Positions 2,747 through 19,586 of a DNA stretch of 34,220 bases are shown here, piece by piece. Numbering within the stretch: position 1 is the stretch's first letter; every line of letters begins with the position of its first letter. Under the pieces are notes generated by a model. It had not been told where the DNA came from and searched no databases. It saw only the letters and a list, made by a program, of their open reading frames with translations. Source of the DNA: a virus (taxonomy: Duplodnaviria; Caudoviricetes). Location: positions 1 through 34,220 of the IMG/VR virus record IMGVR_UViG_3300046779_001348; one strand, given 5' to 3'. Both the position numbers and the translations under genes were made by a program.

Positions 2747-5391
2747 TAGGTCAGCGCTCCAGATGCGGTGACGGCCACGTTGGTGCCATCAGGTGAATAG
2801 TATGAGAGCCAATAAATTCCCGCAGTCGAGATGGCCGTCAGAACATCGGCGTTGATATAAACCGCAGCCGCAGCCGAGACCGTGTAACCGCCGGAGTTGT
2901 CCAGCCAGATGTTTCCTGACTGGCCCGCAGTGATGTTGGTGAACGTCAACGTAAACGTACCCGTGGGGGTGCATTTGAAGTTGTTGGTCACGTTCATGTC
3001 GAACGAACCATCGTTGTCCGTGGTCACCGTTCCGCGCTGGGGGGCCGTGAAAGTCTGAGCAATCCCCAGGCCAGCAACAGTCGTGCTAGACGCAGGGAAG
3101 GTCATGGTGGTGCTATCGGTACCAGACAGGGTCAGGCTATTGTTTGCGGTCAGCGTCTTGCCAGCCGCAATCGTCAGCGTACCGGTGCCGGTCGTGAACG
3201 TGTTTCCGTTGACCGTTCCAGTCAGAGGCCCGCTAAGTGCAGTTGCCGTAAGCGTTCCGGTCGAGGGATTAAATTGCAGTTTGGTAGACGATACGTCCAG
3301 GGTCGTTTCGTTGCCCGTGGTCAGGTTCGAGAACGTGATGTAGCGGGTCGCGTTGGTCGTGGTGTCATCGGTGATGGTGACGCCGGAGGTGTCAGATGAC
3401 CAGGTCGGAACGCCAGAGGCTAGTTTTAGCACCTGGCCATCAGAGCCCGCAGCCAGGAATGTCGTGGTGTTGGATGCTGACTGGTAGGGCAGGGAGCCAG
3501 TCGCGCCACCGGCCAGGCTGGTTGCCAGCCCTGCGGTAACCGTGGACGGTGCCCTGTTTTCCCACCGACCGTCCGCGTTATCCCAAACAATCAGGTCGTT
3601 GTCTGACGGGCTGATAGCATAGACGTTGGACAGGTCATTCAGGCGAGGCTCAAACGTGGGCCGCACAAAGACGGTTCCGTTGGCGTTGGCATAGACCACC
3701 GCGCAGACCTGAACCTTGGCGTTGGGTGCGGTCGGTACGTTTTTGGACAGGCCACCCGTAACCGCAGGGTTGTAGTAAAGAACATCCCCGTTTGCCCAAG
3801 TCTCGCTCGATGCGGAACCCGTGGTATCAAACCCACGCACTTCGCCAAACGAGGACACATAGCCCCATGAGTTCAGCGTGATGTCCTCGGCAGCAATGCC
3901 CAGAATGTATGAGCCGGTCGCAGCCGTTAGACCGGTGGCCGGTGCAGCAGTCAGACCACCAGAGGCTCCCAGGGTGCCGGTAAACATGACCACCTGACCC
4001 TTGGTGATGGCGCTCGATGCCTTGACGCGGTAGTACTGATCCTCGCCAATCTGCTGAAGAACGTTGCCGCCAGCCATGACCATTTCCAGGCTTTGGCAGT
4101 TGTCCGCATCGTTCCAAGACACCGAACCCGCACCGCCAACCACACCGGTTGGGGTGACATCAAAGTTCAGTTCAGTGATGTTTTGCAGGGCACCAGCGTC
4201 AGACAGGGTGATGGCCGAGTTCTGAATAATCTTGCCGGTGGTGCTATCGAACCGCGCAATAGCGTTATCGGTCGATGAGGCGGGGCCAGAGACGTCACCA
4301 TAAGCGGTTGGGGTAGCCCAGGAAGGGACGCCAGCCGCAAGGGTGAGAACCTGGCCGTTAGAGCCAGCAGCGAGGAACGTGGTAGTGCCAGAGCCGCTTT
4401 GATATGGCAGCGAACCGGTCGCACCACCGCCCAGATTGGTTGCGGTTGTTGCAGTTGTTGCGGTTGTTGCGGTTGCGGCGTTGCCCGAAATCGAGCCCGT
4501 AATGATGTTAGACACCGTCAAATCGGTCAGGGTGCCAACGCCTGTGATGCCGCTATATGTGCCACTCAAACGGCCAGAATCGATGGTTCCAGCGGTGATT
4601 TGGTTGGCGTTAATCGCAATGTTTGTGTTGGTAACGCTAGTGATTTGACCCTGGGCGTTAACCGCAAACACGGGAACCGCAGCCGCAGAGCCATAAGTTG
4701 CAGCCGCTACGCCCGTGTTGGTGATGCTGAACGTGTTAGACGATAGGGTTAACCCTGTGCCCGCAAAGTAGGCGCCGGAAACCTGGAAGTTTGACCAGTT
4801 GACCGCAGTTGATCCGAGGGTGCCGCCTGGCTGAATGTAGCAATACCAGGCCGAGCCGGCCAAACCGCCAGAGGTAACAAACACCAGGGCAGACACCAGT
4901 TCGTCCCAGGTGTTTGCGTCCGGTGCCCGCGTCCAAGGCGTTCCGACAATGTAAATACCGTTTTCTGAGGCCGTTGACTGGTCTTTGACCAGCACTCGGT
5001 CACCGGCCACAACGGGCACGGTGTCGATGGTTTGGGCGCCAGACAGGGTGATATTGCCGGTTGTAGCCGCCAGGACTGGCTCTTTCCAAGAAATGCCAGC
5101 CAGGGCCGCGTCAACGTAGGTTTTGTTGGTCAGGTCATTGCCGCCAACGGGAAGGTTGGTGGCTGACGCAGTCGTAAACGTAGCCGCAGCGGGGGTCACC
5201 GCACCAATGACGGTGCTATTGATGGTGCTATTGGTGATGTTGACACCGTCCAGGTTAGGGTTAACCGGTGCATAAAAAGGCGTTCCGCCTGGGCCAATGA
5301 ACGAAATAATCTCGTATGGCGGCAGCGGTTCAAACGTGCCCTGAACCGTAATGAGGTTAGTCGTTACGGTCTTTGCGGTGTCATTAGCCAT
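2746..5391 (-). CDS. Fibre protein (Gly/Thr/Ser-rich, modular)
   Basis: 881 aa. Fibre motifs NKTYVD, WKEPVLAATTGNITLSGAQTIDTV..AGDRVLVKDQ, GPASSTDNAIARFDSTTGKIIQNS, and a duplicated GGATGSLPYQS..TTTFLAAGS.GQVL module. Confidence 0.85.
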   Translation of the reverse strand: MANDTAKTVTTNLITVQGTFEPLPPYEIISFIGPGGTPFYAPVNPNLDGVNITNSTINSTVIGAVTPAAATFTTASATNLPVGGNDLTNKTYVDAALAGISWKEPVLAATTGNITLSGAQTIDTVPVVAGDRVLVKDQSTASENGIYIVGTPWTRAPDANTWDELVSALVFVTSGGLAGSAWYCYIQPGGTLGSTAVNWSNFQVSGAYFAGTGLTLSSNTFSITNTGVAAATYGSAAAVPVFAVNAQGQITSVTNTNIAINANQITAGTIDSGRLSGTYSGITGVGTLTDLTVSNIITGSISGNAATATTATTATTATNLGGGATGSLPYQSGSGTTTFLAAGSNGQVLTLAAGVPSWATPTAYGDVSGPASSTDNAIARFDSTTGKIIQNSAITLSDAGALQNITELNFDVTPTGVVGGAGSVSWNDADNCQSLEMVMAGGNVLQQIGEDQYYRVKASSAITKGQVVMFTGTLGASGGLTAAPATGLTAATGSYILGIAAEDITLNSWGYVSSFGEVRGFDTTGSASSETWANGDVLYYNPAVTGGLSKNVPTAPNAKVQVCAVVYANANGTVFVRPTFEPRLNDLSNVYAISPSDNDLIVWDNADGRWENRAPSTVTAGLATSLAGGATGSLPYQSASNTTTFLAAGSDGQVLKLASGVPTWSSDTSGVTITDDTTTNATRYITFSNLTTGNETTLDVSSTKLQFNPSTGTLTATALSGPLTGTVNGNTFTTGTGTLTIAAGKTLTANNSLTLSGTDSTTMTFPASSTTVAGLGIAQTFTAPQRGTVTTDNDGSFDMNVTNNFKCTPTGTFTLTFTNITAGQSGNIWLDNSGGYTVSAAAAVYINADVLTAISTAGIYWLSYYSPDGTNVAVTASGALT
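4439..4476. repeat. Short 9-nt tandem repeat encoding (TTA)n in the fibre gene
   Basis: gttgcggtt gttgcagtt gttgcggtt gttgcggtt; protein reads NAATATTATTATTATN. Confidence 0.75.
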
Positions 5392-16443: not shown

Positions 16444-16660
16444 CTTTTGGTTTGATATTAGCCCTACGTTGGCAGCGCCCCACACACCGGCAGTTGGGGT
16501 CGGTTCGTATGTCTGGAGCAGTCCCGTACTTCTTCTCCATATCGTCCGCATAATTTTTGCGGAGAATCTTGCAGGGTTCATGGTCAATTAGCCTCTGTCT
16601 GCACCCTGGGCACCCCAGGTCGAACGTATAACGGTGGGTTAGGCAGTATTCGCAGTTCAT
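16394..16660 (-). CDS. Cys-rich hypothetical protein
   Basis: 88 aa with CEYC, CPGC and CRC..C; ATGA coupling. Confidence 0.65.
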   Translation of the reverse strand: MNCEYCLTHRYTFDLGCPGCRQRLIDHEPCKILRKNYADDMEKKYGTAPDIRTDPNCRCVGRCQRRANIKPKDEQQTDRPRKTAPGRR

Positions 16661-17037
16661 GCGGCCTTCATAGCGCCCCGTAAAACCGCCGCCTTAAATT
16701 CCTGGGGGTGAGCATAGTCAGATTCACGGATGCCCAATTCGCGGCCCTTAGCAACGATTCCTGGCCAGGTCTCATGCCACTCTTTTCCATCGACCACGCC
16801 AGGCAAGGTGACCTTGAGTTCATCGTCCCACCGCTCTTGGCGCAGCCAGGTCGCTGGATAGGGGATAAATTGACCGTCATTCTTACGCCACTGGTCGCTC
16901 TTGGCCTGGGCCTCGATGGCCGCCAGCAGGGTGGTGAAGTCAGGGCGGATGGCCTCGGTCTGGCTCCAGGCTTTGCGGGCGTCACCCTTGGCAACCTTTT
17001 TCGGGTAAGCCTGCCAGAACGTGTCAAATTCAGTCAT
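16657..17037 (-). CDS. Stand-alone C-terminal domain of a phage replisome-organiser/replication protein
   Basis: FDTFWQAYPKKVAKGDARKAW...FIPYPATWLRQERWDDE begins at residue 4, so no N-terminal HTH; GGAGGA RBS. Confidence 0.8.
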   Translation of the reverse strand: MTEFDTFWQAYPKKVAKGDARKAWSQTEAIRPDFTTLLAAIEAQAKSDQWRKNDGQFIPYPATWLRQERWDDELKVTLPGVVDGKEWHETWPGIVAKGRELGIRESDYAHPQEFKAAVLRGAMKAA

Positions 17038-17583: not shown

Positions 17584-17848
17584 TTCCCCTTTCTCTTATT
17601 CGCTTCGATAATTCCTTGTCACCCGCGTAGTCACTGAGTTTGGCGCACTCGGCCCGCTCGTACTCAACCGCCTTCTTGATGGCGCGGATCATGTACTCGC
17701 TGGCGTTTTGTTTGAGGTCGTGAATGATCACGCTGGCAAACTGGTTGAGTTGGCCAGTTGATGCGACCCACATGGGCTTGATGAGGTCACCGGAGGTGCG
17801 AGTCATCCCGCAGCCGTGAGCCAGTTCCTCGATTTGGTTGATGTCCAT
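17573..17848 (-). CDS. Hypothetical protein (AVEYERAECAKL motif)
   Basis: Start moved to ATG 17848 (MDINQIEELAHG...), because the upstream ORF-track extension runs over a promoter. Confidence 0.75.
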   Translation of the reverse strand: MDINQIEELAHGCGMTRTSGDLIKPMWVASTGQLNQFASVIIHDLKQNASEYMIRAIKKAVEYERAECAKLSDYAGDKELSKRIRERGNDD

Positions 17849-17855
17849 GCCTTGC

Positions 17856-17884
17856 AGTTTACGGTTTATGCAAACCGTTTGCAA
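17856..17884 (-). promoter_or_regulatory. Sigma70-type promoter with two operator-like boxes; likely leaderless transcript
   Basis: TTGCAA-17 nt (acggtttgcataaaccg)-TAAACT-7 nt-ATG. Confidence 0.7.
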
Positions 17885-17885
17885 G

Positions 17886-18068
17886 TCAGGAGTTTGTTTT
17901 GCGGAGACAGGCTTCGCACTTCCATCTGCGGTTCATTCCGCCGTTAAAGGAGCGCCACTGGCCGCCCATGACCGAGCGGTATTGTTGGCAGTTGGAGCAG
18001 TATCGTTGTCCGGTTGCGCCTTCGACCAACGCGGTTGTTTTTGTTTCGGGTCTGACTTTGTTCTGCAT
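17886..18068 (-). CDS. Small Zn-ribbon protein (60 aa)
   Basis: MQNKVRPETK...YCSNCQQ...WKCEAC; purine-rich RBS AAGAGAAAAG before ATG 18068. Confidence 0.75.
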   Translation of the reverse strand: MQNKVRPETKTTALVEGATGQRYCSNCQQYRSVMGGQWRSFNGGMNRRWKCEACLRKTNS

Positions 18069-18084
18069 CTTTTCTCTTTTGACA

Positions 18085-18325
18085 ATACTTTCCCAAGGGG
18101 TGGTAGCCGACCACCTCCGTCCCAGAGTTGCGAATGTAGCACTCCCAGACAACGCATGACGCAGCGATTCATTCATCAAAGGTCTTGTCCCACCACTTTC
18201 CCTTTGACTACTCCAGTCCCTCGCTGACAGGCTGGAACCCAAACACGGGGTGCAATGCTGGGTGTCTTTTCTTCCGCGCAGCCGATTCAGGCCCGTTGCT
18301 ATCGAGCGGAGTCCGGTCGGAGCGC
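18085..18325 (-). ncRNA. Putative ~250-nt highly structured RNA downstream of the C4 RNA
   Basis: At least six stems plus a CAGCGA/UCGCUG pseudoknot found by eye. G-U pairs favour the minus strand; no credible protein is encoded. Confidence 0.6.
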
Positions 18326-18334
18326 CCAAAGAAA

Positions 18335-18416
18335 AACCCCCTGGTGAGGACTTGGGCTTGACAGGCCAGCATCGGGCGATAACCAAACGATGACTACAAG
18401 CCCTCACCAGGAGGTT
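18335..18416 (-). ncRNA. C4-type antisense RNA
   Basis: 20-bp closing stem AACCUCCUGGUGAGGGCUUG/CAAGUCCUCACCAGGGGGUU enclosing hairpins CAUCG-(uuuGGUUAUCGCC)-CGAUG and GGC-(CUGUCAA)-GCC, followed by a U-run. Confidence 0.8.
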
Positions 18417-18427
18417 CTGATTACTAC

Positions 18428-18464
18428 GGTTATCGCCAAATGCCGGAGCGTCACTTCCGACAGG
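18428..18464 (-). promoter_or_regulatory. C4 a1/b1-type target site in the leader
   Basis: Hairpin UGUCGGA-(AGUGACGC)-UCCGGCA, whose UGAC pairs with GUCA of the C4 loop, then GGCGAUAACC, the 10-nt complement of the other loop. Confidence 0.75.
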
Positions 18465-18467
18465 CCA

Positions 18468-18498
18468 AGTATAACACCACAAACGGTTCGCTACGCAA
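18468..18498 (-). promoter_or_regulatory. Leftward promoter driving the C4/ncRNA leader
   Basis: Extended -10 TGtTATACT, GAACCGTTT box upstream, TTGCGT at 19-nt spacing. Confidence 0.6.
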
Positions 18499-18585
18499 GC
18501 AAAAACCAGTTCTTGCAAACAACAACCGGATGTTGCTGATTTATAGGGGTTTTCCCTAAAAATGCAAAAAAACTCCAAAAAGTAG

Positions 18586-18613
18586 TTGCAAACGGTTTAC
18601 AAACCTGGATAAT
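18586..18613 (+). promoter_or_regulatory. Rightward early promoter 1
   Basis: A-tract UP element, then TTGCAA-16 nt (acggtttacaaacctg)-GATAAT. Confidence 0.6.
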
Positions 18614-18654
18614 TCAAATTGTAGTCATTGCAATTAACCAACCGGAGTGAAGAA

Positions 18655-18870
18655 ATGAACGTAACCAAGATCAAAGCGGGCAAGTACGAAATCAACGCAA
18701 ACGGGTTTGTCTTTACCCTTGTAAACGACTGCGGGCACTGGGTTCTGTCCAATAAAGCAGATGTTGAGTTAATGCGCGACTCCACCAAAACCGCCATCCT
18801 TAACGCTTTGCGTACTTACGATGGCCACGGTTTGGAAAGCCTCAACACCCAAGAATGGTGTTCTTACTAA
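18655..18870 (+). CDS. Early hypothetical protein (71 aa)
   Basis: CGGAGTGAAGAA-ATG; MNVTKIKAGKYEINANG... Confidence 0.8.
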   Translation: MNVTKIKAGKYEINANGFVFTLVNDCGHWVLSNKADVELMRDSTKTAILNALRTYDGHGLESLNTQEWCSY

Positions 18871-18879
18871 ACAAACCCT

Positions 18880-18893
18880 GGGGCTTCGGCCCC
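18880..18893 (+). repeat. GGGGCTTCGGCCCC UUCG hairpin, copy 1
   Basis: Also at 19593-19608 and 19858-19873. Confidence 0.85.
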
Positions 18894-18910
18894 ATCATCG
18901 GAGAGAAGAA

Positions 18911-19204
18911 ATGAACGCAATCGACATCGAAATTACCCAAATTGACCGCCTGGGTCTGTTGCTGGCTCAAATCGCTGACCTTACCAAAGAGGCCGAGTCC
19001 ATCAAAAACGCTATGAAAGACGCGGCCACCGCCGGCGGCCCATCCGCCTTCGAGGGCAATCTCTACAAGGCCACCGTGGTCTGCGCCAACCGTAAGGTCG
19101 TTGACTACTCTGCCCTGCTGGCCGAGTTGAACTGCACCGATGACCAGTTGGCCACCTTCACCAAGACCACCGCAGTGTTCTCGGTTAAGACCGTCAGCCG
19201 ATAA
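18911..19204 (+). CDS. Early hypothetical protein (97 aa, N-terminal coiled coil)
   Basis: CGGAGAGAAGAA-ATG; IDRLGLLLAQIADLTKEAESIK...FEGNLYKATV. Confidence 0.85.
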   Translation: MNAIDIEITQIDRLGLLLAQIADLTKEAESIKNAMKDAATAGGPSAFEGNLYKATVVCANRKVVDYSALLAELNCTDDQLATFTKTTAVFSVKTVSR

Positions 19205-19250
19205 AAATAGGGGGGAGGGTTTCCCCCTATAAAAAAAATCAAAAAAACAC

Positions 19251-19280
19251 TTGACACAGTTTACAAAGACGGTTTACTAT
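19251..19280 (+). promoter_or_regulatory. Rightward early promoter 2
   Basis: Long A-tracts, then TTGACA-18 nt-TACTAT; GACGGTTTAC box overlaps the -10. Confidence 0.8.
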
Positions 19281-19322
19281 TTAATCACGGTCAACGTTGA
19301 CCGGATAAATCGGAGAGAAGAA

Positions 19323-19586
19323 ATGAACACTTACCCACGCTACTCAGTCCAGCCCTTCAGCCTGTGGACAGAAAAAACAAACCACGGCGGCACCGAAAAC
19401 AGTATGCCCTGCGCCATCTGCGGCAAACAGATCAAGACTGACAACCCTAACGCAATTTGGGTCACCATCGTCAACGGTGGCGATTGGGCCGCTAACGAAC
19501 AAGAGGCCAACGATGACGGTGACGCTGGCTTTATGGGCGGATACCCAGTCGGTTCTGACTGCCACAAAAAGTATCTGATCAAGTAA
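19323..19586 (+). CDS. Early Zn-finger-like protein (87 aa)
   Basis: CGGAGAGAAGAA-ATG; CAICGK...PVGSDCHKK. Confidence 0.85.
   Translation: MNTYPRYSVQPFSLWTEKTNHGGTENSMPCAICGKQIKTDNPNAIWVTIVNGGDWAANEQEANDDGDAGFMGGYPVGSDCHKKYLIK

Follow-up and report, generated by a model that had tools for sequence, protein, structure and literature searches.

The phage genome analysed here, the 34,220-nt window, is complete (34.2 kb) and has direct terminal repeats. Its minus strand carries, at positions 18086..18318, a structured non-coding RNA of about 233 nt (type A), which is defined by covariation in homologues and by the model R1. The RNA lies behind an antisense switch, often where the DNA-binding half of a replication initiator is missing, and is therefore likely to be an RNA-based origin. 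On balance we favor the element as a candidate antisense-gated replication origin of the R-loop type.

A covarying RNA family

Type-A RNA was found in over a hundred uncultured phage contigs. The pattern scan for the element returned at least 119 viral loci (about 300 estimated), and the element was already present in loci fetched by way of a 126-aa protein of the window. After clustering at 90%, 11 of 76 clusters were dropped before alignment: seven were longer than 290 nt and four had no detected 3' motif, one of these (L103) being a chance match. The other 65 sequences were aligned on sequence only (alignment A1, mean column identity 47%), and mutual information on A1 yields the helices without any structural input. 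Over 53 pairs, 90.6% of the cells in A1 are paired, compared to 69.5% in shuffled and 34–42% in slid controls. Double-change cells number 726 as against 228 in the shuffles; counted by pairs, 36 of 53 show a double change, which is not above the shuffles, 52 of 500 being as high. The alignment contains 110 G-U cells versus 17 A-C cells, and the minus strand is therefore the RNA strand.

The element is a covarying non-coding RNA on the minus strand. The initial annotation, made from the letters of the window, had proposed a folded RNA on this strand and had suggested covariation among IMG/VR homologues as a check; the 65 sequences of A1 bear the proposal out, and every pairing string that it quoted occurs in the minus strand where it was placed. 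Codon-like conservation, which it had named as evidence to the contrary, was not seen: an open frame in any of the six frames is absent in 40 of 65 homologues, the homologue lengths modulo 3 divide 19/20/26, and a protein-coding region was rejected on these grounds. Folded as a single sequence, neither strand stood out (z 0.48 and −0.10), and 133 of 200 shuffles folded as well as the element.

Rfam covariance models had no match in the whole window; on 17700–19400 the best E-value was 7.1 and nothing exceeded a gathering threshold, so that no family of unrelated function, another possibility raised at the outset, was matched. Model R1 assigns 211 bits to the window element, which is a training member of R1. 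No tmRNA or tRNA was found. Annotated phages and plasmids gave nothing real in blastn searches with the element and with close members that resemble the consensus. The pattern scan of GTDB returned 59 loci, only four of which score with R1. Among 151 genomes of one Burkholderiales-type family, R1 matched two, one of them being the search centre, and the Rfam model RF02932 matched one. Plasmids had no match for types A, B or F (the further types are described below), apart from a type-B copy in Burkholderia sp. THE68. Short metatranscriptome contigs cover the element in four runs, but cover structural genes as well; they carry neither strand nor ends and therefore give no evidence of a distinct RNA. 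No joints across the element occur in the contigs of these four runs, which is a weak test. Full-text searches of the literature found no published description of the RNA, parts of which could be contained in the supplements of PMC5737381 and PMC10690425; the IMG/VR RNA candidates of 29–151 nt described in the available text of PMC10690425 may include fragments of it. We conclude that the RNA family is real, apparently uncatalogued, and part of a modular cassette.

Stems, loops and pseudoknots

Stems P2 to P6 are confirmed by covariation, together with at least five crossing pairings (all positions on the minus strand). The 5' domain (18265..18315), which is supported by A1 and by homologues found without the search pattern, comprises a stem 18315-13/18305-03 crossed by 18310-07/18276-73, a hairpin 18294-90/18283-78 and a 2-bp knot 18285-84/18266-65. 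Stem P3 (18237..18263) covaries, with double changes in five of five outer pairs in A1. Its conserved CACC loop (18252–18249) is nearly invariant and may act as a transient pairing partner.

The central region (18162..18235) is composed of P4 (18235-30/18219-13), a pseudoknot (18226-21/18167-62) and P5 (18208-01/18182-75), all defined by covariation. The pseudoknot CAGCGA/UCGCUG, already part of the initial annotation, is paired in 100% of the sequences with two pairs double-changing. Some of the pseudoknot bases had been fixed by the scan pattern, and homologues found via proteins were used as a check. Compensated variants of the whole region occur in such pattern-free homologues, where CAGAGA/UCUCUG, UAGCGA/UCGCUA and UUAAAUG/CAUUAA replace the pseudoknot of the window.

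A conserved, covarying 3' segment, YCACC-C-CUUG (18094..18103), pairs with the P5 loop at 18194-18190 and 18187-18185. The GGUG of this loop had been thought able to kiss the CACC loop of the earlier stem; that pairing has no double change. In all 65 sequences the base after GGUG covaries with the 3' end (GC 43, AU 22), and the GGUGR loop forms a longer helix with the 3' YCACC (mean 6.3 vs 4.6 bp). One homologue, L476, changes both sides, to a GCUGA loop and a 3' UCAGC. The second triplet of the P5 loop (18187-18185) pairs with the neighbouring 3' UUG. Directly after the conserved 3' segment follow a G-run and then A/T-richer DNA: the 50 nt downstream of the element have 61% A+T versus 42% inside, and the value is higher downstream in 65 of 65 homologues.

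Four more of the helices proposed earlier, GCC/GGC within CCGC/GCGG, ACCCA/UGGGU, CCAGCC/GGGACUGG and GUCAAAGG/CCUUUGAU, are supported by covariation. GCUCG/CGGGC is not supported, its bases covarying with other partners. The pairings GUCUGGGAGU/ACUCUGGGAC and GGUGGU/ACCACC are variable or local alternatives. The earlier list was correct in part and incomplete; it had missed three further pseudoknots and does not contain the pairings 18315-13/18305-03, 18285-84/18266-65, 18158/18146 and 18187-85/18096-94.

Antisense attenuator and cassette layout

The cassette spans about 380 bp in the order promoter, C4-type antisense attenuator, RNA. An extended −10 promoter-like site, TGnTATACT, can be read from the sequence at 18468..18476 (minus strand); it is absent from the consensus-scan list, and many homologues likewise show promoter-like sites in their upstream DNA. 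The C4-type antisense RNA (18362..18466, minus strand; fold z −2.38) contains a stem 18437-18427/18389-18375 that encloses the antisense segment 18418-18397. The attenuator (18328..18360, minus strand) consists of a two-part target (18360-18354 and 18349-18337) followed by a U-tract; it was assigned from the complementarity of the target to 18418-18397 (z −5.0) and from a terminator-like site called at 18328..18360. The initial annotation had called the upstream unit a C4 antisense RNA. Its anatomy is indeed of the C4 type, while the Rfam models C4, c4-2 and c4-a1b1, families listed in the available part of PMC2864571, did not match it at E ≤ 10.

The position of the element directly behind an antisense-type attenuator, noticed from the window, extends to the family: a U-tract lies upstream of 139 of 142 distinct elements and is at most 40 nt away in 124. 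The longest target complement averages 9.7 nt versus 5.6 nt in shuffles, the observed value being inflated by choice of the best tract, and a perfect complement of at least 8 nt is present in 107 of the 139 elements. Across the family the antisense targets fall into 50 types that reassort with the RNA types, as expected for incompatibility groups; the antisense type of the window co-occurs with five RNA types. In seven loci (L087, L107, L122, L128, L135, L147 and L164), 100–200 nt of other sequence separates the U-tract from the RNA, and the modules are therefore separable.

Directly behind the RNA of the window lies a gene for a 60-aa CxxC-CxxC protein (17886..18068, minus strand), which is not conserved across the family, and then a promoter-like site for the downstream operon, TTGCAA-17-TAAACT (17856..17884, minus strand), read from the sequence. 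An 11-nt repeat at 17870-17880, 18588-18598 and 18697-18707, near promoter-like sites that flank the cassette on both sides, is a possible operator. Upstream of the cassette promoter of phage L283 there are five to six tandem, iteron-like 12-nt repeats, 750–900 bases before the initiator-domain gene; they are absent in its sister L336.

Interchangeable RNA types in the slot

At least six RNA types, among them Rfam Betaproteobacteria-1 (RF02932, type B), can replace one another in the slot behind the U-tract. In the sister phage L003, whose 126-aa protein is 96% identical, RF02932 occupies the same slot with 76.9 bits, the antisense RNA ahead of it being the same too, and L307 likewise carries it; the window element has no RF02932 match. 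Types C, D, E and F and a further type in L493 fill the same slot. The candidates for types C–G are located at L027:4295-4500, L015:3700-3930, L317:4960-5190, L283:5402-5652 and L493 at about 3700-4000; Rfam gave no match among those that were scanned. Judged by eye, the 5' domain of type A resembles that of type E, and the 3' domain of type B is common to type F. Types A and B have a common ending, CACC-NNN and then a G-rich stretch, while the core fold of type B differs; its Rfam model spans about 120 of about 220 nt. The type-B RNA of Burkholderia sp. THE68 (L498:4930-5135) stands between dehydrogenase and porin genes on a 1.5-Mb replicon, the record of which has two such places.

Genome content and the 126-aa initiator domain

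The window encodes P22-like portal, capsid and ejection genes as well as Erf, an exonuclease, SSB and RusA. We scanned 54 distinct open reading frames, picked by eye out of 226 mechanical ones, with Pfam and/or PHROGs; no polymerase, helicase, primase or full initiator was matched among them, in agreement with the initial annotation as far as polymerase, helicase and primase are concerned. A complete genome of siphovirus type, G017, likewise has none of these four among 44 open reading frames chosen by a length rule. The host of the window phage is inferred to be a betaproteobacterium, because its relatives point there. Composition skew switches near 18500, but follows the direction of transcription and was set aside. 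Three copies of a 33-nt leader surround start codons of leftward early genes (18643-18675, 18899-18931 and 19311-19343, plus strand) and may together be targeted by a translational regulator. In L355, L358, L363 and L390, which belong to the podovirus group with a capsid-adjacent cassette (below), the major capsid gene is preceded, in about 130 nt, by a conserved, apparently structured leader, with or without a cassette.

The sole replication match among the scanned frames is the 126-aa gene at 16657..17037 (minus strand), a "headless" initiator, in which the C-terminal domain of phage replication initiators is joined to an additional helical tail. The initial annotation had recognised no initiator in this genome; there is no full one, and this gene represents the C-terminal half of one. 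It matches positions 178-253 of the 383 positions of phrog_270 with E = 3e-23. The predicted fold (pLDDT 87) resembles replisome organisers; matches to solved structures are weak, with Z = 5.0 for G39P (rmsd 2.5, 58 aligned) and Z = 3.6 for the C-domain of DnaD, all below the tool threshold of 8; Foldseek against the PDB and a PDB sequence search gave no match for the model. The extra tail (aa 83–126; window 16657-16790) is present in 20 of 29 stand-alone and in 0 of 47 full-length loci. It weakly resembles SAP/LEM domains and the N-terminal helical domain of Rho (Z 3.2–3.8). Gene 0040 of the Methylophilaceae phage P19250A has the same C-terminal initiator domain (54% identity). In contrast to the headless phages, its 221-aa product has an N-terminal domain, the gene contains internal repeats, and no type-A RNA was found in this cultured phage with its full initiator.

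Association with initiator architecture

Close relatives of the 126-aa protein have an RNA type at 71 of 80 loci; the other nine mostly have short upstream flanks, L071 and L075 not being short. In the set of 76 loci, RNA types A–F lie near 24 of 29 stand-alone domains versus none of 47 full-length initiators, the profiles for types B–F having been built partly from loci within this set. The five stand-alone misses comprise one truncated hit, one in which the RNA was found across a contig end, one with 170 bases upstream and two ambiguous cases. On whole contigs, R1 matched none of 35 controls (34 full-length, one ambiguous) and four of four positive controls. The phage MW202674, which had been selected only for its distant stand-alone domain, contains a type-A RNA with 70.9 bits; this out-of-sample case was reached only through the protein and not by blastn of the element. 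In a tree that omits the ambiguous loci L302 and L304, 27 of 29 stand-alone domains form one clade (support 99/92), and the other two are on long branches. The contingency is therefore mostly one event, with few events overall.

Independently, the arrangement recurs in another initiator family. In L088, L140, L152 and L159 the RNA is followed by a 96–100-aa O-like C-terminal domain and then by a P-like loader, which adjoins in lambda O-P type origins as well. The cassette in these loci takes the place that the N-terminal domain of O and the iterons have in lambda. In at least two initiator families, then, presence of the RNA goes with loss of the origin-binding half, and to this extent the link to initiator loss considered in the initial annotation is seen; strict mutual exclusivity is not.

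Other replication genes are found next to the cassette, too. In 14 of 58 representative loci the RNA is followed by a ParB-like gene, and an SF2 helicase is present in 13 of these. Only 12 of 40 helicase loci have a cassette within the fetched flanks, which speaks against the origin reading; where present, it can lie to either side of the ParB-helicase-primase module and in either orientation. An integrated, satellite-like element in a Burkholderiales MAG (L210:94-6170) holds the cassette behind primase and helicase, in the gene order integrase, HicB-like, regulator, int-alpA RNA, primase, helicase, cassette.

Proposed mechanism

Based on this arrangement we propose the following mechanism. 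By analogy to C4 of P1 and CI of P4, gating of RNA synthesis by the C4-type antisense RNA is likely: accumulated antisense RNA would pair with the target and terminate transcription at the U-tract. The long RNA would then be made solely at a low level of antisense RNA, i.e. at low copy number or with no related phage resident. In the next step the folded RNA would stay bound to the template through its G-rich 3' tail, forming an R-loop, and the P5 loop, being complementary to the displaced strand there, could hold the bubble open beside the A/T-rich DNA. The headless domain, or elsewhere a P-like loader or the phage helicase-primase, would load the helicase at this site. Loading at an RNA site would make the origin-binding domain and iterons dispensable. 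As a more tentative extension, the cassettes may constitute a superfamily of swappable RNA origins in phages of freshwater Betaproteobacteria, with at least six dissimilar pseudoknotted RNAs (Betaproteobacteria-1 among them), about 50 C4-type switches, spread of the cassette as an additional origin, repeated loss of the DNA-binding half of the initiator, and a leftover adaptor that may read the RNA.

Alternative explanations

A free trans-acting effector, such as a protein decoy or an anti-defence or anti-competitor RNA released upon titration of a C4-type sensor, is rather unlikely; here the link to replication genes would reflect the early-operon position of the cassette. It is favored by carriers that do have an initiator. 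In one podovirus group the cassette is optional: 9 of 76 measurable loci have it, inserted between the scaffold gene and the capsid gene (type A in six, type F in three), and the native capsid promoter is intact behind it. Type A is missing from eight near-complete non-carriers of this group, and none of the types A–F was found in eight fetched non-carrier genomes. An HTH O-like initiator occurs in 9 of 11 fetched genomes of the group, carriers included, and iteron-like repeats occur in two. Prophage L207 has a 289-aa initiator-like gene, identified by eye, 1.8 kb upstream of the RNA. These podoviruses and L207 carry both RNA and full initiator, contrary to strict mutual exclusivity. The type-B RNA in Burkholderia sp. 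THE68 is an orphan copy amid metabolic genes of a bacterial replicon, and the compact, 3'-closed fold would suit a stable RNA. Together with the 24 of 29 stand-alone loci, the capsid-adjacent group and L207 indicate that headless initiators nearly always come with the RNA and that the RNA needs no headless initiator. An origin that was added first and freed the protein domain later would fit this pattern; so would an RNA with another job. An effector leaves unexplained how replication starts in the headless phages, why one of six RNAs sits in the slot at 24 of 29 headless loci and why the same layout recurs in a second initiator family.

An improbable alternative is a loading signal for helicase or primase made of folded single-stranded DNA, with transcription and its RNA serving only to open the duplex. 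The genomic correlations would be identical to those of an RNA origin, and plasmid motifs of such size could act as ssDNA according to the part of PMC5737381 available. The excess of G-U over A-C cells, several tertiary pairings of 2–3 bp and the A-rich linkers would fit RNA better, and the strict position behind a transcription attenuator also argues against a DNA signal.

Little probability is likewise given to an antitermination RNA, like put of phage HK022, or a translational leader for the long rightward operon. In the window the RNA lies right behind an early promoter, with about 29 kb of co-oriented genes beyond it, and an SD-like G-run and an ATG come next in many homologues. Just 10 of 65 homologues, however, have an open reading frame of at least 40 aa starting at the RNA 3' end, so that the G-run plus ATG was rejected as a general start site. 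Because of this and of the native capsid promoter left intact behind the cassette, the RNA is not regarded as a leader. Separate promoter-like sites follow immediately: 23 of 98 type-A elements have one no more than 75 nt behind them, versus a background of 1.4%, and the copies in L461 and L474 are oriented against the neighbouring operon.

A self-cleaving or splicing RNA that processes the cassette transcript, which the initial annotation had offered as its alternative and which dense pseudoknots and conserved unpaired bases might suggest, is highly improbable: Rfam ribozyme and group I/II intron models have no match, a number of the "invariant" bases had been fixed by the search pattern and differ in homologues found without it, six dissimilar RNAs occupy the same slot, and relatives lack the whole cassette rather than an intron-like piece.

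Comparison with known systems

The proposed origin shares its logic with ColE1, in which a long folded RNA is kept in check by a small antisense RNA and replication starts without an origin-binding protein. The two differ in several respects. The antisense RNA of ColE1 is encoded on the opposite strand, that of the cassette upstream on the same strand, and no minus-facing counter-promoter is listed over the element; the cassette RNA has about 235 nt compared to about 555 nt for ColE1 RNA II, and control is likely by termination, unlike in ColE1. The initial annotation had drawn analogies to ColE1, ARRPOF and PAGEV. Membership in these families is not supported: the element has no Rfam match, PAGEV included, and no plasmid blastn match that would indicate ColE1-type homology, and R1 reaches at best 6.4 bits on ColE1, which is no match. 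Behind a G-run in the ColE1 record, a 10-nt stretch near 1183-1192 resembles the 3' tail of the RNA family at nine of ten positions, a weak, post hoc likeness.

C4 of P1/P7 and CI of P4 (RF01695) have in common with the cassette a same-strand antisense segment in a stem loop, a two-part downstream target and a U-tract. C4 of P1 gates icd and ant, and these systems as a whole gate icd, ant or kil genes, in contrast to the non-coding RNA gated in the cassette, which has no Rfam match and 50 target types.

Rep-less RNA origins exist according to the available part of PMC3035462, where ColE1 and MRB are the only two plasmid families named for an RNA start without a Rep protein. The Vibrionaceae MRB origin described there is Rep-less and about 500 bp in size (cassette about 380 bp); a small inhibitory RNA sets incompatibility and there is a longer RNA. 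Compared by description, this pair resembles the cassette, but the MRB RNAs come from opposite strands, while the cassette antisense RNA is on the same strand. As in ColE1, no origin-binding Rep protein was matched among the scanned frames of the window and of G017, whereas the capsid-adjacent group and L207 do not share this trait. ARRPOF, GEBRO and PAGEV, as given in the available part of PMC5737381, are structured motifs of 223–349 nt tied to plasmid replication regions; they belong to plasmids of other taxa, and no C4-type attenuator is described for them there.

Significance

Even with the origin reading wrong, a large structured RNA family that Rfam does not model would stand on good support. 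Should the function be confirmed, this RNA-based replication control would be a variant of a known principle. It would give the orphan Rfam family Betaproteobacteria-1 a function and provide a replicon of about 400 bp that is open to testing. It would also explain how numerous small phage genomes without a polymerase, helicase, primase or full initiator replicate, and would add a third RNA-start design in an abundant group of phages, combining a compact, knotted RNA with C4-type control and mix-and-match specificity.
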